This document shows positions 4,194-63,765 of a stretch of 64,000 nt of DNA, in pieces (position 1 is the first letter of the stretch; every line of letters starts with the position of its first letter). The notes beneath the pieces are model-generated. The model saw only the letters and a list, made by a program, of their open reading frames with translations, had not been told where the DNA came from and made no database searches. The DNA is taken from assembly GCA_910577495.1 (NCBI GenBank), contig CAJTML010000002.1:4503-68502 (forward strand), in the 5' to 3' direction. The position numbers and the translations under genes are program-made. The stretch comes from an uncultured Eggerthellaceae bacterium (GTDB lineage Bacteria > Actinomycetota > Coriobacteriia > Coriobacteriales > Eggerthellaceae).

Positions 4194-7100
4194 TTACGCT
4201 TCGCCTTTCGCTGTGTGTGCAGCAATCTCAGCAATGATGTCTTGAGTAGGCATAATCTTAATCGTTTGCGAAGGCAGCGAGTTCAAAAACGTCTTGCCAT
4301 ACCCCTTCGTCACCAGGCGATTATCAGCAAGAATAAGAATGCCGGTATCGGTTGATTTGCGAATTAGGCGACCAGCTGCTTGCTTTGTTTCCAACACCGC
4401 TGCCGGCAGCACGAAATGGCGCCAGGCCTGGTCATCACGCGCGGCGCGCTCGCATGAGAGCGGATCACTCGGTTTGGCGAAGGGCAGCTTCGGAATCACC
4501 ACGCCTTTGAGCGTGGAACCAGGGGCGTCAAAGCCCTCCCAGAAACTTTTAAGCGCGAAAAGCGACAGGTGCTCGTCTTTAATGAAGTCATCGCGAAGAC
4601 CTTTGACTGACACGCCCCACTTTTGGCAGACCAGGCGAAGCCCTTCAGCTTTTAGCTGGGGTTGCGCTACATCAAAACACGATTCCATCTCTTTTCTGTT
4701 GGTGAACAGCGTTAGCATAGAGCCTTTTTGTGCCAGGTGAACGCCCACTAAGAGCTCTTGCAGCGCCGCCAAATACTGCGGGGCATTTGGCTCAGGCATA
4801 TCTTGCACCACGTACACCGTCATCTGGTTATCAAAATCGTAGCTAGAATCCACTAAACAGCTTGAAGCAGAGGAGAATTCGCCACCATTTAACCCAAGCG
4901 CTTCTTCGAATGACTTGAAGCTTTTGTTCACTGTCAAAGTTGCTGAAGCTAGCACCACTGAATGCGTATGCGCAAAGAGCTTCTCGTTGAGTTTTTCGCC
5001 AACATTAAGTAAGAGCGCCTCTAAAACGTCACTCTGGCGATCCTTCTTCTTGTTGAGCTTTGCGGCATATGCGTAGGTATCCAACGGATTAGTGAGAATG
5101 ACGTTTATTGCGCCGATCTGGTCTTTCAGCTCCATTGCCACCAGCGCAATTTCACGTTGAACCTCAGCTGCGCCCTCAATATCCTCCAAGAAACCAACCA
5201 AGTCCTGACACGCCGTAATAACCTTTTCAGCGTGGTTTTCAAGCTGAGAGCCCAACTCAACCAGTGCCTGGAACGTATCCGACGAGCGAATCTCAGTGTT
5301 AATCCAAAGCTCAACTATGTCGTATGACTTATTGCGCTTATTTGCGTCGAAAAAGAGCAGATCCTTAATATGTGCGCAGAATTCCTTCGCCACCAGCGAA
5401 TACTCTGCCGACGCCAACTTCGCCTTATTCGTTAACCCGTAGAAGAGCGTGCAGCTCTCCCCCATGAGTTTCTGCTCAACCTTACGTTCAGCGCGATTGT
5501 ACAGATTTCGCGTGGAGTCGGTTTCGCCAATCTGGCTTACCAGTCGACTGATTTCTTCGGCATTAAGTTCAACTGAGAAAGCTCGGCGCGCTTCATTCTC
5601 AGCACCGTGAGCCTCATCCAGCACCCAATAACGAAGCGGCGGCAGCAAACCACCATCAGCGGCCTGATCACAGAAGAATAGACTGTGATTAGTGACGACA
5701 ATGTTCGCCGCCTCGGCCTTCCTACGCGAGCCATACACAAAGCACGTATTACCATAAAAGGGGCATTTCCGGCGCAAACATTCCCTACTGGTCGTAGTAA
5801 TTGACCAGCGTGGCAGTGTTCGGTAGTCAATCTTGAGGCTATCTAAATCGTCGTAGTCAGATTGCTCAATATAAGACAGCAGGGCTGCATACGCAGGTGC
5901 TTGCGAAATCTCTTTGCCGGCCACCTCACGTGTTCCGATGCCGTCTCGTCCAATCCGGTCAATCTTTCGCAAACACGGATAGTGCGAAAATCCCTTCAGT
6001 GAAACAAATTCCAGCTTCCCAAACGCAGGATTTTGTTCTGCTAGCGCTTGGCGAAGCGCCGGAAGTTCATGATAAACCAGCTGGTCAAGCAACGCGTTCG
6101 TCTTGGTTGCAACACCAACTCCTATATTATTATCAAGCGAGGTCAACACCGAAGGTACCAGGTAGGCCATAGACTTGCCAACCCCTGTACCCGCTTCAAC
6201 CATGAGGTTTTCTGACGTCGCAAAAGCATTGCGTACAGCTTGCGCCATCTCTAATTGCTCTGCACGCGGCTCAAAATCATCGTATAAACACCCAACAAGA
6301 CCAGCTTGCGAAAAAGCTGCCTCAATATCTGCAGGCTCCGGAAATACGAGTTTTCGCTCTGGATCTGCAGCAATATCGTCGGCATCTAACTTCGGCTTAC
6401 CAATTACATTCGTAACTCGCGCTTTTCGCATCGTTCTGAGCGAGTAATTAACATCAGTAAACGTCGGTGCACTCTCAGTGCTCCCTGAGTCCAGCGCATC
6501 CTTATTGTTTGAACTCTCTCGCTCTGCCAGTTGCAGCTGATGCTGCTCTTTGTACTGGTTGGCGAAATACTCAAAGACAATTTGCGTTGACCACTGATCC
6601 GGCGTTGCGAGGTCAGCAATCTCACAAACTAACGCGCTCGGCATACTCGCAATAGCAGCTAATAGAATCCTGTAGATTGCACACGTAGCAGCGACGTCAT
6701 CGTCTGCCCGATGCGTTGATACTGGCGCCCCAAACGCTTTTACCAGGTCAATAAGCCGATGAGACTTCATTCGAGGAAGTGCAATGCGAGTCAAATCTAG
6801 CGAATCAATCCATTGATTCGTCAGCAGGGGATATCCACTTGGATGCTTCGTAGTAAATGTTCTATCGAATTCGGCATTGTGCGCAATTACTTTTGCGTCG
6901 CCAACAAATTCGACCAACTGAGCCAACGCTTCTTCTGGTGTAGGGGCGTCAGCCACGTCGTCATCATGAATGTTTGTAAGATACTGCACATCGTCAGGAA
7001 TGGGTTTACCTGGGTTAACAAACGTATTAAACCACCCAGTGATTTCGCCATTCTCCATCCGGGCAGCTGCAATTTGCGTTAACTCATCATGGTGGAAGGA

Positions 7101-13194: not shown

Positions 13195-13743
13195 CTAAAC
13201 AGGCATTACCACAACGTGTCGTGCACTGCCTTCACCCTCTGAAGCGGTTTCAACGCGCTCATCATCACGGAGTGTAATATGAATAATCCTGCGCTCATAA
13301 GGAGTCATAGGACGCATCTTAATACTACGATTCTGGCTTACCGCACGATTTGCGGTTGAGTGAGCAATTGACTCCAACTTCTCACGTTGACGTCCTTTAT
13401 ATCCTTCGACATCAATCACAACCGGATAACGGAAACCAATCGTGCGAACGGTAATTGCCGAAACAAGGAATTGTAAAGCATCAAGCGTTTTACCATGTCG
13501 ACCAATAAGAACAGCAAGATCATCACCAGTGATATCGAGGATTAATTCACCCTCGTCACCTTCATACTCATCAATAGTAACTTCGCCTACATCAAAGTAC
13601 TTAAGGATGTCCTGGAGAACATTAATAGCTGTATCAGCGATATTATCAATATCTTCATCAGTCAAAGAGTCTTCTACACCGTCGTCCTCTTCAACTTCTT
13701 CGATCTCAATAATTTCTTCTTGAGATTCCAGTTCATCTGCCAT
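13195..13743 (-). CDS. khpB: Jag/KhpB-type KH + R3H RNA-binding protein
   Basis: 182 aa. KH-like LIGRHGKTLDALQFL, R3H ...MTPYERRIIHITL..., and an acidic N-terminus. It sits in the conserved yidC-jag position. Confidence 0.85.
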   Translation of the reverse strand: MADELESQEEIIEIEEVEEDDGVEDSLTDEDIDNIADTAINVLQDILKYFDVGEVTIDEYEGDEGELILDITGDDLAVLIGRHGKTLDALQFLVSAITVRTIGFRYPVVIDVEGYKGRQREKLESIAHSTANRAVSQNRSIKMRPMTPYERRIIHITLRDDERVETASEGEGSARHVVVMPV

Positions 13744-54403: not shown

Positions 54404-55765
54404 ATGCTATCAGAACGCCTGCTCAGTACCGTCGTTAGAGGCTGCACCAATCAATACCTTCGCTTAAAGCCATGCGAAGAAACGCATATTCCGGCTCCGG
54501 TACCAGGTCAGCCGTATATGCTCTATATGCACGTGCCGTTTTGCGAGCGTTTGTGCCCGTACTGCTCGTTTAACCGCTTCCCGTTTGCGGAAGATCGCGC
54601 GCGGCCCTACTTCGCCAATATGCGCAAAGAGATGCTTATGCTCAAAGAGCTTGGCTATGACTTTGACAGCGTCTACATTGGCGGCGGCACGCCAACCATC
54701 ATGCTTGATGAGTTGTGCGAGACTATTGATCTGGCGCGCGAGACGTTTTCCATCAAGGAAGTTTCCAGCGAGACGAACCCTAACCATCTGATTCCGGAGT
54801 ATCTGGATAAGTTGCAGGGGCGTGTGCAGCGTCTGAGCGTGGGCGTGCAGAGTTTTGATAACGGCCTGCTCAAGCAGATGGATCGCTATGAAAAGTATGG
54901 CAGTGGCGAAGAAATCTTGGAGCGTATCCAGGAGGCAAGTCCGTACTTTACCTCGCTGAACGTGGATATGATTTTCAACTTCCCGGCGCAGACCGAAGAC
55001 ATCTTGATTAGCGATATTGAGCGTGTGGTAGAAAGCAACACTTCGCAGACGACGTTTTATCCGCTAATGGCCTCGCCGAGCGTGGAGCGCTCGCTTGCGC
55101 GCACGGTGGGCAAAGTTGACTACGCACGTGAGCAGCTGTTTTACGAGATTATTGACGAGTTGCTGGCTGGCGGAGACAACCCACTGTTTACGCACGGCAG
55201 CGCGTGGACGTTCAATCGCAACACGGGTGTGGGCGATGCGGGCGCGTCCCATGACGAGACGCTGCTGGAAGCGGGTGCTCCGGTGGCAGAGCCGCGTGGC
55301 ATGATTGACGAGTACGTGGTGGATTACGAAGAGTACCCCGCCATTGGTAGCGGTGGCATCACCTACTTGGGCGAGACGCTCTACGTCAACACGTTTTCGG
55401 TGGTGGATTACAACAAAGCCATTGAAAGCGGCAAGATGTCACTCATGGGCAAGGCGAAGTTCTCCAAAAAGCAGCGCATGCGCTACCGCTTCATGATGCA
55501 GCTGTTTGGCCTTCGTCTTGATAAAGTGCAGTTCAAGCGTGATTTTGGCTGCTCAGTTGAAGCGGGACTTCCCGCTGAGATGGCGTTCATGATGGCTAAC
55601 GGCGCCTTCGCCACCAACACCCCCGAGGAGCTCACGCTGACTCCCAAGGGGCGTTATCTGATGGTGGTTATGATGCGTCAGTTCTTTGTGGGCGTGAATA
55701 ATCTGCGCGATCAAGCGCGCGCGGCGCTCACGGGCGAAGAGCGCACGCTTATTTTTGGTGAGTAG
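54404..55765 (+). CDS. HemN/HemW-like coproporphyrinogen-III-oxidase-family radical SAM protein
   Basis: YMHVPFCERLCPYCSFN, YIGGGTPT. The start is uncertain (GTG 54392 or ATG 54404). Confidence 0.75.
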   Translation: MLSERLLSTVVRGCTNQYLRLKPCEETHIPAPVPGQPYMLYMHVPFCERLCPYCSFNRFPFAEDRARPYFANMRKEMLMLKELGYDFDSVYIGGGTPTIMLDELCETIDLARETFSIKEVSSETNPNHLIPEYLDKLQGRVQRLSVGVQSFDNGLLKQMDRYEKYGSGEEILERIQEASPYFTSLNVDMIFNFPAQTEDILISDIERVVESNTSQTTFYPLMASPSVERSLARTVGKVDYAREQLFYEIIDELLAGGDNPLFTHGSAWTFNRNTGVGDAGASHDETLLEAGAPVAEPRGMIDEYVVDYEEYPAIGSGGITYLGETLYVNTFSVVDYNKAIESGKMSLMGKAKFSKKQRMRYRFMMQLFGLRLDKVQFKRDFGCSVEAGLPAEMAFMMANGAFATNTPEELTLTPKGRYLMVVMMRQFFVGVNNLRDQARAALTGEERTLIFGE

Positions 55766-56234
55766 CTTTCTTGCAGCATTTCTCTGGGCGTTGGCGGATT
55801 AATTCGTAGTCGACGCCCATTTCTTGGCACTGCTCAATAATCTTGTTGGTGAGTTTGTCCAGTTGGCGGATTTCCTTCTTGGATAACTTCGCCAAAATTT
55901 CATTCGCGGTGCGATTCTCGGCCGCAAAGCGCTTCTGCAGGATTTCGCTTCCCTTCGCGGTGAGCGTGCAGGTGAACCCCTTTTTGTTCGCTTTGATGGT
56001 GACATATCCATTGCGGCAGGCCTTTTTAGCCACGGCAACTGCCTGTTTGTTATCCCAGCGCAAAATCTTTTTGATCTGCTTCTTTGACAGTGAGCCGTTG
56101 CCGAATTTGTCGATAACTTTCAGCAGCGCGCCTTGGCCGCGCGTGTAGCTTTTCGGGCCATCTTTGTGAAATGCCAGCTTGGAGTAGTTGGCGGCGCGCT
56201 TGAGATTCATGAGCGTTTTGGTTGCTTCAGCCAT
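55749..56234 (-). CDS. MarR-like winged-helix transcriptional regulator
   Basis: The ATG at 56234 follows GAGG by 5 nt; the ORF is open to 56363. …RGQGALLKVIDKFGNGSLSKKQIKKIL…GYVTIKANKKGFTCTLTAKGSEIL… It overlaps the hemN-like 3' end convergently by 17 nt. Confidence 0.55.
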   Translation of the reverse strand: MAEATKTLMNLKRAANYSKLAFHKDGPKSYTRGQGALLKVIDKFGNGSLSKKQIKKILRWDNKQAVAVAKKACRNGYVTIKANKKGFTCTLTAKGSEILQKRFAAENRTANEILAKLSKKEIRQLDKLTNKIIEQCQEMGVDYELIRQRPEKCCKKATHQK

Positions 56235-56429
56235 GATTGCCTCGATTCGGGTTTGATTCGTGTTGTTGGTGGGCTTGCGCGCAAGCTCGCGGATATCTAA
56301 CTTAACGCCCACGCGCGCGGGACGGGCAAGAGAATCGCGAAGTTGTTTCAAGTTGTTTCCCAATAGTCACGATCGGGTGGCTTTTGTGACCTAGAATGAA
56401 ACCAGGCTAGTAAACGAGAGGCGGCAATC

Positions 56430-57724: not shown

Positions 57725-58630
57725 TTATGCCTTGCGAACTGGCAAACAAAGTCTGAAAAACGCGTCCCTGCTTTCAAAGTTAAAAGCAGGGGTTTCGGCA
57801 ACCACGTCATCAATGTAGTCGCCGTCAATGACGTATCCTTCGCGCTGAGCGTGCTCAATCATTTCAGCAATGAGCGCACGCTCGGTATCTTTGTTTCCCA
57901 TTTCCACATTAATGCAATGTTCGCTGTAGAGCGTGAGGTATTCTCCACCCCGTACGATCTCTGCCTGATGGAACAATTCGCCAAAAGATTCATCAACGAA
58001 GACGTAGGCTTTATTAAATCTAAGGTCTCGTTCAGCAAGACGATCTGCGGTAATTATGCGACCGACGTTCCTATAGAGCGAGATAGGAAGGTTGCGTGCG
58101 CAAATTTCTTGCTTTATGAGTTTGCGAATAGGCTCCCATTGAACGCACAGAGGCTCTGGCCCATTTGGATCTTGCTCGGGAACATCAAAGATGATGGCTC
58201 GGCGCTCTGGTAGTGTTTCAATTTGCATAACATCACATTGAGGCCGATCGCTCAATCTTTCGCAGCTAGTCAAAAACTCGTCAGCCACTTTAAGCGAAAC
58301 GAGGATGTCTTGACGCTGTTTTTCTAACTGATCACGATGTTGACGAACGATTTGTTCCAGCAGTTCAAGCGAATGATTTGTTATCACCTTTTGAATTTCG
58401 TCAAGCGAAAGCCCGATTGTTTGCAGCTCAAGAATGGTATCAAGCGTAGAGCACTGGTCAATGGTGTAATAGCGATACCCTGAGGATGGATCAATGTGTC
58501 GCGGCTCCAGGATTCCTTTTTCCTGATAGATGTGAAGCGCTCTTGTGGAGACGCAGTTGAGTTGAGCCATTTGGCCACAGGTGAGGTACTGTCCAAAGCT
58601 TGTTGTCTTAAGGGATTGAGATTCATTCAT
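57725..58630 (-). CDS. MerR-family regulator with a C-terminal GyrI-like effector-binding domain
   Basis: The ATG at 58630 (MNESQSL...) is preferred; the ORF is open to 58693. HTH YLTCGQMAQLNCVSTRALHIYQEKGILEP...SGYRYY, a coiled linker, and a ~150-aa C-terminal domain of BmrR/GyrI-like size. Confidence 0.75.
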   Translation of the reverse strand: MNESQSLKTTSFGQYLTCGQMAQLNCVSTRALHIYQEKGILEPRHIDPSSGYRYYTIDQCSTLDTILELQTIGLSLDEIQKVITNHSLELLEQIVRQHRDQLEKQRQDILVSLKVADEFLTSCERLSDRPQCDVMQIETLPERRAIIFDVPEQDPNGPEPLCVQWEPIRKLIKQEICARNLPISLYRNVGRIITADRLAERDLRFNKAYVFVDESFGELFHQAEIVRGGEYLTLYSEHCINVEMGNKDTERALIAEMIEHAQREGYVIDGDYIDDVVAETPAFNFESRDAFFRLCLPVRKA

Positions 58631-58769
58631 AAGCAGCCCTTTGAGTGTTGTGGCGGCAAATCTGTTTCGCTGATTGGCAGTTTGAATGGGCAAATTTTAA
58701 GCAAAGACAGGTAATTTATCAATGCGGTAATTATGAGAAAGTACGTCAAAAAAATATCGGAATAAGGTG

Positions 58770-58800
58770 TTGACTCTGTACCTACGTAAGACTTCAAGAT
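58770..58800 (+). promoter_or_regulatory. Candidate MerR-type promoter with a 19-bp spacer
   Basis: TTGACT (58770..58775) - 19 nt containing TACGTA - CAAGAT (58795..58800). It lies upstream of a GGAGGAGGG RBS and the TTG start at 58844. Confidence 0.4.
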
Positions 58801-58843
58801 GTTCATGATGCACTGGGCATTAACGAGAGGAGGAGGGTTAACC

Positions 58844-60424
58844 TTGAAACGAGCAAAGGCAAAGAAACTCTTACTTACCGTGGGTATGAGTGCTCTTTTG
58901 GCTGTTGGCGTCTTCGCAGCAGTTGGCTGTCAGCCAAAAGCTCCCGACAACACAACGAAAGAGGAAGTGGTTGAAGCCACTGATGATACGGTGCTTCTAA
59001 AACCGCAGACAGATCCGTATAATCCGGTAGTTCGAGATTATGGCGACGGGGTGTTTGTACAGCGTACGCCGGGTGAGGATATTTCGCCCACTCAAAACGC
59101 AACAGCTCCATTCCATCATCCAACCGAGAGTGTTCCTTACAACACGTACTTCATGAATACTGATGCACGTGGCTGCAACGCATGCCATGAGGATCTGCGC
59201 CAGACCGTGAAAAACATGCCGTATGGGCACATCAATTTACCGGCAGCAACGGGCATTGAACTTACCGTTCAGATGTGCCTAGACTGCCACAATACCAACG
59301 ATTTCGGTTCGGTCATTCACAGTCTGCACGTAACTGAGGACGATCGCGCGAAGTGCATGAATTGCCATGACGCTTCTGAAATGCTTGATGCTACATCAAA
59401 TAACGCCAACGGTTCAAATACCCGGATGCCGCTTTGGGACGTTATCAAGCACACGCGCATGCGTGGCATTCTGGATGTGCCAGCAGAAGAGATCACGGGA
59501 GAATTTACGTATCGTCAAGATGAGACGTTGCCCGGCGATACCTTCTTCGACATCTCTTGGCAAAACGCTGACTCAGATTACGACCGTATGGCCAAAGCCA
59601 AAGACGGTGTCGAAGTTGACGAAAACCTCTACGATACTTGGACGATTACCGTAAGTGGTGCGGTTGATCAGGAAAAGACCTGGACGCTTTCCGAGCTTAT
59701 TGCAGCAGCTCCGAGCGAGACGTTTGTGACGAAGGAAAACTGTCTGTTGAACCCCATTGGCGGTCCGCTCATTACGCAAGTTGAGATGACGGGCATTCCG
59801 GTTGATTGGCTGTTTGAGCAGGTTGGCTTGAAAGATAGCGCCGTTGCCGTAACACTTGCCTCTTCTGATTCTTCCTTGGGTGGCGTTAATTTCTCCAACC
59901 ATCCTCGTGGTGAACAGGCTTACATTGTCTATGAAATTGACGGTAAACGACTTGAGTGGGAGCAGGGCTATCCGTGCATTTATTGCCAGACGGGTGCTTC
60001 AGCAATGACCATGTGGTTGCAGCTTTCTGACATCATCGTTGAGGAAGAAGAGATCAACGAGAACTTGGGCGTCGAAGACCCCAATGGCGTCAAGATGGTT
60101 CGCCCGAACGTTGGTTTGTTTGACCTGCGCGAAGGCCAAGTAATCAAAACTGGCGAAACCTTCCAGTTCCATGGTTATGCCGACGACAAAGAAAAGCAAA
60201 TTGTGGCAATTGAGGTGTCGATGGACCGTGGTCAGACGTGGAAGCGTTTTGAGACCCCCGATACTGATTTCATTCGTTGGGTAACGTGGACGCTTGACTT
60301 TACCCCAGAAGTTGACGGCGCATACTGTGTCTATGTTCGATCCATTAACGAAGATGGCACCATGACACCTGAACCGATTGAGAAGATGGTTGTTGCGAAA
60401 TCTGAAATGCCGGAGGTGAACTAA
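58844..60424 (+). CDS. Lipoprotein: N-terminal triheme c-type cytochrome fused to a sulfite-oxidase-family (Oxidored_molyb-like) domain and an Ig-like Moco-dimerisation-like domain
   Basis: TTG start 6 nt after GGAGGAGGG; the listed 58799 start would lie in the promoter. Signal MKRAKAKKLLLTVGMSALLAVGVFAAVGC. Three CxxCH motifs (CNACH, CLDCH, CMNCH). SO-fold pattern WTITVSGAV…TWTLSELI…ENCLLNPIGGP…TGIPVDWLFEQVGL…YIVYEIDGKRLEWEQGYP… C-terminus IVAIEVSMDRGQTWKRF…VYVRSINEDG. Confidence 0.7.
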   Translation: MKRAKAKKLLLTVGMSALLAVGVFAAVGCQPKAPDNTTKEEVVEATDDTVLLKPQTDPYNPVVRDYGDGVFVQRTPGEDISPTQNATAPFHHPTESVPYNTYFMNTDARGCNACHEDLRQTVKNMPYGHINLPAATGIELTVQMCLDCHNTNDFGSVIHSLHVTEDDRAKCMNCHDASEMLDATSNNANGSNTRMPLWDVIKHTRMRGILDVPAEEITGEFTYRQDETLPGDTFFDISWQNADSDYDRMAKAKDGVEVDENLYDTWTITVSGAVDQEKTWTLSELIAAAPSETFVTKENCLLNPIGGPLITQVEMTGIPVDWLFEQVGLKDSAVAVTLASSDSSLGGVNFSNHPRGEQAYIVYEIDGKRLEWEQGYPCIYCQTGASAMTMWLQLSDIIVEEEEINENLGVEDPNGVKMVRPNVGLFDLREGQVIKTGETFQFHGYADDKEKQIVAIEVSMDRGQTWKRFETPDTDFIRWVTWTLDFTPEVDGAYCVYVRSINEDGTMTPEPIEKMVVAKSEMPEVN

Positions 60425-61239
60425 TGGAAAAGACCGTAAAAAAGGTTGCAAGTGTTACCGGTTCGCTTATGTTGCTTGCCGGAATGACCGCACCGGGGAC
60501 AGCGGCGTTTGCAGATGAAGCAGTTCAAGGCGAAGCAGCTGAGTCGGAGTGTCCAGTACACGCAGGAGTTAATGTTGTGGATGCTTCCCAAAAAGCTGAC
60601 AAGGTATTTGGTAGCTTTTCGTATACGCAACAAGCCGTAACTTCGAACAAGACTATTGCAAAAACGCTTGGCACGGCAGCTCAATATTTATGCGGCTCAA
60701 ATCTAATATTTGCTGAAAGCGAGTCTTTGGATGCATGGGAGCTGCATGTTGGGGGCGATGTCGCCAACGAATTTAGTGCTACGTTAGATGAGTTGGCACA
60801 AGAAGAAGTATCTTCAGTCGTAATGGGTTGTAGCTGTTCTGGTAACCCGGCTGACGGAACGGCGACAGCGAATGCGCTTGTAACAGGGGTCGCTATTACG
60901 TCAATCATGGATGCCGCTGAGCTTGAAGCTGGAGTCAACACCATTGTATTCACTTCTGCCGATGGTTATGAAATGGCGCTCCCGCTGACCTATGTGGCAC
61001 AGCGCTATTCGCTGATCGTGTTTGACGTGAATGGTGCGCCTTTAGCTGATTCCGTTGGTGGAACAAATCAGTTGTGGCTTGGATCAACCTCAGCACGCTA
61101 CTTTGCACGCGATGTGACTTCAATCAGTTTCGAAACGCGCGAGGTTGCACCCCCTGCGCCTGGTAGTGCCGCTGCGCAAGACAACTACGCGAATGTACCG
61201 AATGTCGCAGTCTCCTCTGCTTCATCCGACAACGCTTAA
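60424..61239 (+). CDS. Secreted sulfite-oxidase-fold (Oxidored_molyb-like) protein, paralogous to the middle domain of the upstream gene
   Basis: TAATG stop/start overlap. Sec-type signal MEKTVKKVASVTGSLMLLAGMTAPGTAAFA with no RR. WELHVGGDV…ATLDELA…GCSCSGNP…VTGVAITSIM…IVFDVNGAPLADSVGGTNQLWLGSTSARYFARDVTSISF. Confidence 0.65.
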   Translation: MEKTVKKVASVTGSLMLLAGMTAPGTAAFADEAVQGEAAESECPVHAGVNVVDASQKADKVFGSFSYTQQAVTSNKTIAKTLGTAAQYLCGSNLIFAESESLDAWELHVGGDVANEFSATLDELAQEEVSSVVMGCSCSGNPADGTATANALVTGVAITSIMDAAELEAGVNTIVFTSADGYEMALPLTYVAQRYSLIVFDVNGAPLADSVGGTNQLWLGSTSARYFARDVTSISFETREVAPPAPGSAAAQDNYANVPNVAVSSASSDNA

Positions 61240-61415: not shown

Positions 61416-61706
61416 ATGAGTGATGCAATGGTAACAGGCCGTATGCCTGAAGAAAAAAAGATAGCAGCAACGCGGATTTTAGCGCGTGAAAACCTGGCAA
61501 CATCTGAAGTGATTAATCGCGTCTTTGATGAGATCATTGAAACGGGAGGTACTTCATTTTTGTTCAAGAAAGAAATCCTTCCCGAAGCGTGGCAGCGAGC
61601 AGCGCAATTTGTAGATAGCTTACCCATTAAACGGACGGGTAAATATGTTGACATGACCCTTAAGGAGGCCAAGCGCGAACGTCTCACAAACAAAGGGCTG
61701 ATGTAG
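61416..61706 (+). CDS. Type II antitoxin (small DNA-binding, RelB/DinJ- or RHH-like)
   Basis: 96 aa, preceded by AGGAGG. It ends 1 nt before the PIN gene. MSDAMVTGRMPEEKKIAATRILARENLATSEVINRVF…. Confidence 0.55.
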   Translation: MSDAMVTGRMPEEKKIAATRILARENLATSEVINRVFDEIIETGGTSFLFKKEILPEAWQRAAQFVDSLPIKRTGKYVDMTLKEAKRERLTNKGLM

Positions 61707-61707
61707 C

Positions 61708-62172
61708 ATGGCGCACGTAAAGCTTCTTGTGGACACGAATGTGCTCATTGACTATCTGAGTATGCGCGAGCCCTTTTATGAAAAGGCACGCCTCCTTATG
61801 ATCGGTGGTTATGTTGGCGAGTTTGAGCTTTGGATGTCATCATCACAAATGACCGATTTGGTATATATATTGAGCGAAGGAGGCAGTCGGCAAGATGTAC
61901 CTACGGCGCTTCGCCAACTAAAAGGATTGCGAAGTTTTGTGAATGTATATCCTGCTGGTTCCCATGAAATAGATGCGATGTTGCAAGGTGGATGGGGTGA
62001 CCCAGAGGACCATCTTATGGCAGAGGTTGCCTTGAGCCTCAAAGCGGACGCCATTGTAACGCGCAACGAATCAGACTATGCAGAAAGCCTGATTCGGGCG
62101 ATGAGTCCTGAGGCCTTTTTTACTTGGATGAAAAGCGAACACAACCTCGACTACGAAGAGGTTGAGTTTTAA
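61708..62172 (+). CDS. PIN-domain toxin (VapC-like)
   Basis: 154 aa. LLVDTNVLIDYL (first acidic PIN residue), …SSSQMTDLVYIL…, …DPEDHLMAEVA…, …IVTRNESDY. Confidence 0.7.
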   Translation: MAHVKLLVDTNVLIDYLSMREPFYEKARLLMIGGYVGEFELWMSSSQMTDLVYILSEGGSRQDVPTALRQLKGLRSFVNVYPAGSHEIDAMLQGGWGDPEDHLMAEVALSLKADAIVTRNESDYAESLIRAMSPEAFFTWMKSEHNLDYEEVEF

Positions 62173-63548: not shown

Positions 63549-63765
63549 TGGTTCCTCTTTGTGGTTCGTATGATGTGATCTATTTGCATGAGGCAGGACG
63601 TTCGCCAAAGTACAGCGATCAAGCGCGTGTCCTCTCATGTATGACGCGATTTTGCGGCTTCATAGTATAAAGCAACGCACACAGCGCAACTCATAAATGC
63701 TTTCGAAGGGTGTGCTGAGTGGGTGGTTGGAGGCAGTAGTGAAGCTGGGCGTGTCAAGGATTTTG

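Follow-up and report, generated by a model that had tools for sequence, protein, structure and literature searches.

In a 64,000-nt stretch of genomic DNA from an uncultured Eggerthellaceae bacterium (contig CAJTML010000002.1, positions 4,503 to 68,502 of the forward strand; hereafter the window, whose numbering is used throughout), the region 57725..61239 was found to encode a MerR-family regulator and, on the opposite strand, two genes, here called g1 and g2, for exported proteins of the sulfite oxidase (SO) superfamily. The product of g1 is a predicted lipoprotein precursor in which a triheme cytochrome c is fused to an SO-fold (SUOX-fold) domain and an immunoglobulin (Ig)-like domain, and the product of g2 is a second, secreted SUOX-fold protein. 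The three genes are read here as an inducible module for an extracytoplasmic, membrane-tethered SUOX-fold oxidoreductase, and a probability of about one half is assigned to this reading, including the whole of the mechanism proposed below. The module appears to represent a new architecture within the SUOX superfamily with a puzzling biogenesis: heme c and SUOX modules in one Sec-type lipoprotein, accompanied by a Sec-type SUOX subunit, would contradict the accepted rule for the biogenesis of enzymes with molybdenum cofactor (Moco). The only label given to the genes in databases is 'molybdopterin-dependent oxidoreductase', and a literature search retrieved neither a characterisation of the fusion family nor work on how it is exported or on the accessory operon described below.

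The boundaries of the three genes drawn in a first-pass annotation, made from the letters of the window, held in an open reading frame (ORF) check (Table 1). Translation of g1 is assigned to a TTG codon preceded at a distance of 8 nt by GAGGAGG, and the public gene call uses the same start (P0001, 526 amino acids (aa)). The only longer reading, from ATG 58799, adds MFMMHWALTRGGGLT; it lacks a ribosome-binding site and likewise has no twin arginine (RR). The first-pass annotation had described g1 as one polypeptide made of a lipoprotein signal without RR, three heme c sites, a SUOX fold with a Cys at the Mo-ligand position and an Ig-like domain, and Pfam, a SorA profile and AlphaFold2 modelling with Foldseek agree on this architecture. 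The three CxxCH motifs (C111/C114/H115, C145/C148/H149 and C171/C174/H175) are all invariant in 24 diverse homologs, as are the distal His residues H129, H159 and H162, so that three bis-His hemes c are expected in g1. Against Pfam, the heme module gave sub-threshold matches to MtrC/MtrF II-IV (4e-4) and cytochrome c7 (9e-4), and it weakly matches OmcA/MtrC decaheme models. With CxxCH motifs and distal ligands, a signal peptide and ResB/CcsA genes adjoining in Clostridial loci, g1 is a predicted c-type multiheme cytochrome.

The match to the SO family is significant for both proteins, each Oxidored_molyb (PF00174) domain scoring above the Pfam gathering score (Table 1). A profile of the g1 family matched SorA (2blf) with an E-value of 6e-25 over both the Mo and the dimerisation domain. 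The Ig-like domain of g1 was in addition matched to SorT by phmmer over residues 456-528, and to Pfam Mo-co_dimer (PF03404) below threshold (E 0.014). In the AlphaFold2 model of g1 the predicted local distance difference test score is above 90 across most of the SUOX and Ig parts. The best Foldseek match of this model was SorA (E 7.5e-20), and the matches as a whole comprised SorA, Thermus SO, chicken SO, SorT, SoxC, plant SO, nitrate reductase and YedY (7.5e-20 to 1e-8). Reading of the g1 sequence revealed neither a hydrophobic or transmembrane segment nor an RR in the stretch linking the last CxxCH to the SUOX domain.

The ATG of g2 overlaps the stop codon of g1 (TAATG) and is preceded by its own GGAGGTG; it is the first possible start after the preceding stop. 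The description of g2 as a coupled gene for a second SO fold behind a Sec-type signal was borne out, with its Cys138 at the position of the SorA ligand. The motif GCSCSGN, whose second Cys is this residue, is invariant in the alignment of the g2 family, as is the long motif GGTNQLWLGSTSARYFARD. Foldseek matched g2 to SorA (2.6e-10), YedY (2e-8) and, further down, PruR (7kom, 2e-6). With a mean column identity of 51% compared to 38% for g1, g2 is the more conserved partner. A C-terminal Ig-like dimerisation domain is not present in the g2 of the window.

The export signals carry the conflict with the biogenesis rule. Cytochromes of the c type cross the membrane unfolded, via Sec. In periplasmic Mo enzymes the cofactor is incorporated in the cytoplasm, followed by twin-arginine translocation (Tat) (PMC10609526), as the first-pass annotation had assumed, and the outgroup SUOX proteins from the same scan were either cytoplasmic or bore a clear RR, located N-terminally or internally after a polytopic domain. 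At the possible starts of g1 and g2, all of which were inspected, no RR was found, and no upstream start provides a Tat motif. The signals of the g1 family are of the ordinary lipoprotein/Sec type, with a Sec-like mean maximal 12-residue hydrophobicity of 2.48 and about equal usage of Lys and Arg. Those of the g2 family follow a highly conserved pattern, M…[ST]KK[IL]AG.(A/T)GS.L.L..MG.G…A[FLY]A, in which RR occurs in only 1 of 120 members and Lys outnumbers Arg by 257 to 29 in the first 12 residues (P0055-P0174), despite the high GC content of the lineages. Their hydrophobicity (1.93, versus 1.6-2.1 for genuine RR signals of neighbouring reductases) makes them look like Tat signals bearing a twin lysine. 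Both proteins would thus be routed by Sec and not by Tat.

A folded export, in which Moco is loaded in the cytoplasm and the proteins leave by a Tat system accepting the twin-lysine signal, with g1 partly unfolded, or by a route through a SecA paralog, and the hemes are added later, is considered quite unlikely. The low hydrophobicity of the g2 signals, their fixed [ST]-K-K-x-A-G n-region and their strong avoidance of Arg would suit such a route, and one g1 homolog (P0363) does have a consensus Tat motif, SRRRFIK. However, a twin lysine is the standard block of Tat recognition and serves as the Tat-blocking negative control (PMC5449189), and the g1 signals are of the plain hydrophobic lipoprotein type. 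As separate observations, P0363 is a metagenomic triheme-SUOX homolog and hence an instance of heme c on a Tat-type precursor (MESSRRRFIKPVVAG…), and its ligand region reads C-I-D-D, not C-x-x-N. Polytopic proteins whose internal RR immediately precedes the SUOX domain, the dual Sec-Tat architecture of the Sco3746 type, are the closest canonical relatives of the SUOX domain of g1 (L064, L069, L070, L073, L078 and L080; taxa Thermomicrobiales, Nitrososphaerales, Halobacteria and Actinomycetota).

Clues to maturation came from Clostridial copies of the pair. When the neighbours of all loci were clustered, seven Clostridial loci proved to have ResB- and CcsA-like genes adjacent to the pair, and four a SecA-like gene; neighbour clusters 1 and 3 were antisense artefacts of greedy longest-ORF calling in high-GC loci and were ignored. 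The SecA-like proteins form a paralog clade of about 692-707 aa, with at least 48% identity within the clade and at most 44% to any other SecA or SecA2, and score below every NCBIfam cut-off for SecA and SecA2. All 6 loci of diverse clade members share an operon, (DUF4491), SecA-like, DUF4213/DUF364, ResB, (CcsA), His_Phos_1, the last encoding a CobC-like histidine phosphatase. Directly upstream of this operon g1-g2 is located in 3 of the 6 loci (L090, L092 and L093); L088 belongs to a metagenome-assembled genome (MAG) whose g1-g2 pairs lie elsewhere, and L091 ends upstream at a contig end. Operon loci of the clade are L088-L093, L012, L037, L042, L056 and L059, with L091:635-6352 as an example. 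No description of a SecA paralog dedicated to System II cytochrome c maturation was found in the literature search. The linkage of this paralog to the pair in Clostridia would also serve the folded export considered above, and early-folding proteins are reportedly handled by SecA2 systems elsewhere; on the other side, SecA paralogs work through the narrow SecY channel, and the paralog was found neither in the window nor in any Eggerthellaceae locus.

Two of the Clostridial loci connect the pair to molybdenum. In L091 the operon runs into a Moco riboswitch (RF01055, 62.5 bits, 6404-6532), followed by modA, modB, an ATPase gene, moeA, a MoCF_biosynth gene and moaA. In L056 a Moco riboswitch (RF01055, 61 bits, 13436-13554) precedes the gene of an ATP-binding cassette (ABC) transporter protein 3 kb from g2; this protein of 542 aa has an ATPase domain of the corrinoid/heme/siderophore importer type, and no other Mo enzyme was detected in the 18-kb locus. 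Ahb-type heme-synthesis genes lie upstream in L093, where g1 carries an N-terminal FMN_bind domain with ApbE motif. For DUF364, the authors of its structure proposed a maker of flavin or pterin derivatives, with a link to molybdate and tungstate transport (PMC2954201). Moco riboswitches were detected in 0 of 16 Eggerthellaceae loci and 0 of 9 further Clostridial loci scanned. The accessory operon genes were not found beside Eggerthellaceae copies, and a search for the SecA paralog, DUF364, ResB, CcsA, histidine phosphatase and mod/moe genes gave no match anywhere in the window; the Eggerthellaceae carrier genomes themselves encode numerous cytochromes c and Mo enzymes. Among the explanations offered in the first-pass annotation (a cofactor-less or differently cofactored SO fold, an unknown export or maturation route, or a new extracytoplasmic redox enzyme), the Moco riboswitches, modAB and moeA/moaA adjoining the Clostridial operon shift the balance in favour of a genuine Mo/pterin cofactor that is inserted by an unknown route. 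A more specific proposal, that some Gram-positive anaerobes export unfolded SUOX apo-enzymes via Sec and load Mo-pterin or a modified (e.g. dephosphorylated) derivative outside, with the Clostridial operon serving this purpose, is tentative and held to be possible rather than probable.

The mechanism is proposed as follows, with routing, cofactor, complex formation and catalytic direction read from sequence and genomic context. The g1 protein would pass through Sec in an unfolded state and receive its lipid anchor at Cys29, and its three bis-His hemes c would be attached outside by System II (ResB/CcsA). The g2 protein, secreted by Sec, would pair with the SUOX/Ig part of g1, joined in most genomes by the small protein g3 described below, and the resulting g1:g2 heterodimer would imitate the homodimer of the SO family. 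Electrons from the quinol pool may enter via a separately encoded membrane cytochrome and be relayed by the three hemes to a pterin-metal site with a Cys ligand, where a small-molecule acceptor would be reduced. This site is most likely in g2, where it is placed because the g2 pocket is better conserved. The acceptor would be a compound other than sulfite, presumably the one to which the BmrR-like MerR activator responds; small organic acceptors are suggested by the paralog expansion beside LuxR-controlled flavin reductases together with the BmrR-like regulator. A Mo- or W-pterin cofactor is favoured on balance, because the ligand Cys is invariant and the Clostridial operon has a Mo-related context. 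As both SUOX domains would fold outside the cell, the cofactor, Mo-molybdopterin or a derivative, would have to be delivered and inserted after export.

The pocket was compared by aligning the g1 and g2 families with 14 canonical sequences (archaeal, actinobacterial, cyanobacterial, Thermomicrobiales and a SorA fragment). Both families retain the ligand Cys, the following Gly, the Asp of the (L)DG motif and several structural Gly and Trp residues, as well as the Asn three residues after the ligand Cys, with the exception of some Clostridial g2 proteins. The short C-x-x-N-P-x-G-G loop of g1 is no aberration, as the RR-bearing polytopic outgroup has it too (C-[IV]-S-N-P-x-G-G). Several results weigh against the proposed enzyme module. 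The canonical invariants W269, H354, R359, P363, G367, W374 and W395 are lost in both families, among them the Trp of ARWRG, the His and Arg of HGFPxR, PG and the Trp of KW, and the Lys of KW (K373) is kept in 83% of g1 proteins, is Leu in the g1 of the window and is Arg in g2; due to these losses the pocket may not bind standard Moco. The Trp of ARWRG is taken by us to be W204 of chicken SO, and the lost Arg and Lys are presumably pterin-phosphate contacts. Furthermore, the assignment to Sec is a motif reading of the signal sequences, the module encodes no quinol dehydrogenase, only two loci, both from Clostridia, have Moco genes beside the pair (0 of the 16 Eggerthellaceae loci scanned), and we know of no precedent for extracytoplasmic Moco insertion. 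The copy in the window could moreover be impaired, since it is without g3 and has the most degenerate g1 pocket.

The same losses in both families suggest that g1 and g2 descend from one ancestor that was already divergent. They also speak against sulfite being the substrate and would fit a changed mode of holding the cofactor. A plain sulfite dehydrogenase of the SorAB/SoxCD kind, with the cytochrome simply fused to the catalytic subunit, is accordingly given very little weight, even though SorA, SoxC and SorT rank first in sequence and fold comparisons: scores against the NCBIfam equivalog models reach only 40.6 of a cut-off of 600 for SorA, 39.5 of 420 for SoxC and 20.4 of 570 for SorT, the Arg after the ligand Cys that would correspond to SorA R109 is absent in both families along with the ARWRG Trp, the occurrence of several paralog pairs per genome, with MerR, AraC or Crp regulators, suggests a variety of organic substrates, and the hosts are strict anaerobes rich in reductases. 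A different possibility is that the SUOX domains work without Mo, binding a free pterin, a flavin or another ligand outside the cell or acting as substrate-binding or scaffold domains, with the redox chemistry left to the hemes or conserved Cys residues. PruR, the only known SUOX fold without Moco and a Sec-exported pterin binder in which the ligand Cys is replaced by Trp (PW motif) and the hairpin is truncated (PMC11194511), sets a precedent and is among the fold matches of g2 (7kom, see above); the lost pocket residues, the Sec-type signals and the DUF364 gene of the Clostridial operon, with its proposed product (PMC2954201), would fit as well. This possibility is nevertheless judged unlikely, since both families have an invariant Cys where PruR has Trp and conserve the C..N, G and D(G) columns, the Clostridial operon is accompanied by Moco riboswitches, modAB and Moco biosynthesis genes, and SorA rather than PruR is the best fold match.

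Table 1. Features of the g1-g2 locus and its surroundings in the window (slash, end of the signal peptide).
Feature	Position	Strand	Remarks
Lys-rich ORF of 204 aa between radical-SAM gene and ackA	55749-56363	-	No Pfam family above threshold; public call is a gene of 200 aa
MerR-family regulator gene	57725..58630	-	301 aa per public records; ORF could reach 58693
Candidate MerR-type promoter of g1-g2	58770..58800	+	TTGACT, 19-nt spacer with imperfect dyad CCTACGTAAG, CAAGAT
g1, lipoprotein precursor, 526 aa	58844..60424	+	Triheme cytochrome c, SUOX-fold domain and Ig-like, putative dimerisation domain
g1 signal peptide, residues 1-29	58844..58930	+	MKRAKAKKLLLTVGMSALLAVGVFAAVG/C, lipobox Cys29; direct reading; no twin arginine
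g1 triheme c module	59141..59458	+	CxxCH at 59174-59188, 59276-59290 and 59354-59368
g1 SUOX-fold (Oxidored_molyb) domain, residues ~263-403	59630..60052	+	Pfam E 2.1e-14, above gathering score
g1 Cys300, Mo-ligand position	59741-59743	+	Motif C-L-L-N-P-I-G-G (ENCLLNP); aligned with SorA Cys104
g1 Ig-like domain related to SO dimerisation domain	60104..60400	+	IEVSMDRGQTW...; SorA profile match, phmmer, Pfam
g2, secreted SUOX-fold protein, 271 aa	60424..61239	+	Translationally coupled to g1
g2 signal peptide, 30 residues	60424..60513	+	MEKTVKKVASVTGSLMLLAGMTAPGTAAFA/DE (...GTAAFA/DE); Tat-like shape, twin lysine
g2 SUOX-fold domain	60727..61140	+	Pfam Oxidored_molyb E 2.4e-15, above gathering score
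g2 Cys138, second Cys of GCSCSGN, Mo-ligand position	60835-60837	+	Aligned with SorA Cys104
RelB-like antitoxin and PIN toxin pair, not part of the enzyme	61416..62172	+	Pfam RelB 0.002, PIN_3 4.6e-16

The fusion is a sizeable and conserved family. A word-indexed search yielded 52 homologs of g1 and 410 of g2, the named ones all labelled 'molybdopterin-dependent oxidoreductase' and originating from Eggerthella, Rubneribacter, Gordonibacter, Raoultibacter, Adlercreutzia and others, and an exhaustive profile search, covering 1.84 billion cluster representatives, returned 449 matches for g1 at E<=1e-30. The family comprises at least 100 clusters at 50% identity, from human and animal gut Eggerthellaceae and from Clostridia. 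The CxxCH motifs are retained in orthologs, exactly three being present in 103 of 106 full-length g1 representatives; of the same 106, 73 have a lipobox-like motif, 5 an extra FMN_bind/ApbE motif and 1 (P0363) a convincing Tat consensus, other RR being sporadic. Carriers among species-representative genomes of Eggerthellaceae are Slackia, Gordonibacter, Adlercreutzia, Raoultibacter, Paraeggerthella and others, and among Clostridia Oscillospiraceae, Lachnospiraceae, Christensenella and others, often with several copies per genome. Cultured carriers are Slackia exigua ATCC 700122, Eggerthella sinensis, Raoultibacter timonensis, Paraeggerthella hongkongensis DSM 16106 and Adlercreutzia species. 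Multiple paralog pairs occur per genome, among LuxR-controlled flavin reductases. The FMN_bind variants of g1 (L093:3501-5321, P0346, P0367, P0377, P0382 and P0400), with an N-terminal FMN_bind domain and the ApbE flavinylation motif EAVTGATITS, were noted as a side observation; they would unite flavin mononucleotide (FMN), three hemes c and a SUOX fold in a single exported polypeptide, the FMN being a further cofactor attached outside the cell.

The survey of the pair and its neighbours proposed in the first-pass annotation showed that g2 follows g1 on the same strand within 1.5 kb in 62 of 69 genomic g1 copies, and 3 of the 7 remaining copies end at contig ends. It also added g3 and the Clostridial operon to the picture. 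In Eggerthella sinensis and Rubneribacter the canonical order is MerR, g1, g2 and g3, the last encoding 92-93 aa. The g3 protein is an Ig-like domain related to the C-terminus of g1, with a sub-threshold match to Mo-co_dimer; g3 and long g2 proteins repeatedly matched this model at E 0.001-0.03. In Clostridia the g3-type domain is fused to g2, resulting in proteins of 334-350 aa. Neither g3 nor a remnant of it was detected in the window, where tblastn matched only the Ig domain of g1 itself. A related locus, L094, has a g1 protein 78% identical to that of the window and retains g3 (L094:8569-8844). Its DNA homology to the window is restricted to g1-g2, ends at the end of g2 and is bordered by different flanks; the module therefore behaves as a movable cassette, of which the window copy appears to be a two-gene version.

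Regarding the divergent regulator, its assignment to MerR in the first-pass annotation stood, and the GyrI-like ligand-binding domain ascribed to it could not be verified. Pfam identified MerR_1 (9e-12) and MerR-DNA-bind (1.7e-6), in accordance with an N-terminal helix-turn-helix and coiled coil followed by a C-terminal domain of about 170 aa, and MerR_1, MerR-DNA-bind and MerR domains were present in 11 of 11 family members. A profile of the regulator matched BmrR best among PDB entries (E 8e-22), with BrlR, EcmrR and SkgA as further matches, over the N-terminal ~150 residues only; beyond residue ~165 neither Pfam nor PDB sequences gave any match, to a GyrI-like domain or otherwise. Such an identity is still plausible, because the best solved relatives are MerR proteins with a C-terminal effector domain. 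A MerR homolog adjoins the pair in 13 of 67 loci, and Clostridial copies have AraC- or Crp-like regulators beside them instead. Spacers of 19-20 nt are a hallmark of MerR-activated promoters, and the element upstream of g1 (Table 1) is a candidate promoter of this kind; TTGACC-19 nt-TAnnnT is found upstream of g1 homologs in L008, L032 and L081.

Among known systems, SorAB and SoxCD resemble the module in combining a SUOX-fold Mo domain and an Ig-like dimerisation domain (putative in g1), an aligned ligand Cys and a heme c partner with an extracytoplasmic location, which is predicted for g1 and g2. Unlike the situation in g1, their heme c resides on a separate Sec subunit and SorA/SoxC are exported via Tat, whereas in g1 three MtrC-like hemes c are fused N-terminally to the SUOX fold in a single Sec/lipoprotein precursor; in addition, the sulfite-pocket residues are missing in g1 and g2, and a second SUOX-fold subunit replaces the homodimer partner. 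Heme b-MoCo fusions of the Sco3746 type and MsrPQ (YedYZ) likewise join a heme module to an exported SUOX-fold domain. In the Sco3746 type, heme b is held in transmembrane helices and the folded MoCo domain is passed to Tat by means of an RR that precedes the last helix (PMC5449189, Tooke et al.). In g1, by contrast, heme c is predicted to be bound covalently and neither an internal helix nor an RR is present; an internal hand-over to Tat was ruled out for it, there being no transmembrane segment or RR between the modules. PruR resembles g1 and g2 as a SUOX fold exported by Sec that acquires its ligand outside the cytoplasm, but it has only ~150 aa, Trp for Cys, a truncated hairpin and no heme partner, and signals with DcpA. 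A PruR-like protein was ruled out for g1 and g2, which keep the Cys, have larger domains and lack a DcpA-type neighbour. With MtrC/OmcA cytochromes and the flavinylated extracytosolic reductases found in Gram-positive gut bacteria, g1 shares a lipoprotein-anchored multiheme wire at the outer face of the membrane and, in some variants, FMN_bind; it differs by having three hemes only, with sub-threshold similarity, and a SUOX fold as catalytic module instead of a flavoprotein or an enzyme of the dimethyl sulfoxide (DMSO)-reductase family. The genomic setting of g1-g2 is that of the Eggerthellaceae reductase arsenals surveyed in bioRxiv 10.1101/2022.12.26.521950, in which the SO family is not mentioned. 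The regulator agrees with BmrR-type MerR proteins in helix-turn-helix and coiled coil, a length of ~300 aa with a putative C-terminal effector domain and a 19-nt-spacer promoter, and differs in that GyrI-like models detect no sequence similarity in its C-terminal domain.

The locus had been described as AT-richer than the flanking ackA, and this was confirmed: the GC content is 0.45-0.51 over 57.5-62 kb and 0.53-0.60 in the flanks, which marks a genuine lower-GC block. The window matches the public MAG GCA_948687225.1. Upstream are located purD, a radical-SAM (S-adenosylmethionine) gene, the 204-aa ORF and ackA. Downstream, the RelB/PIN toxin-antitoxin pair occupies the place which g3 has in relatives and marks the end of the low-GC block, followed by a Na+/H+ antiporter gene ending at 63638. 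An Rfam scan of the window from 50 to 64 kb gave no match at E<=1. Further along the same contig, mostly past the window end (L085:15010-20582), a HipBA toxin-antitoxin system and a LuxR (GerE)-regulated FAD_binding_2 reductase with ferredoxin were observed. Based on these genes beyond the antiporter, the module lies within a typical Eggerthellaceae reductase island.

Either outcome for the cofactor would be new, namely an exception to the biogenesis rule, by post-export loading or by a novel way of export, or the use of a different cofactor by a SUOX fold whose ligand Cys is intact. If post-export loading is true, it would be the first exception to the rule that Moco enzymes go by Tat, would imply an unknown step of cofactor export or insertion, and would parallel the attachment of heme c, covalent FMN and pyrroloquinoline quinone (PQQ). 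The Clostridial operon with SecA paralog, DUF364, ResB, CcsA and phosphatase provides concrete candidate genes for such a step. For the gut Eggerthellaceae, the module would add an unrecognised class to their substrate-inducible respiratory reductases, and may thus bear on the metabolism of drugs and diet.

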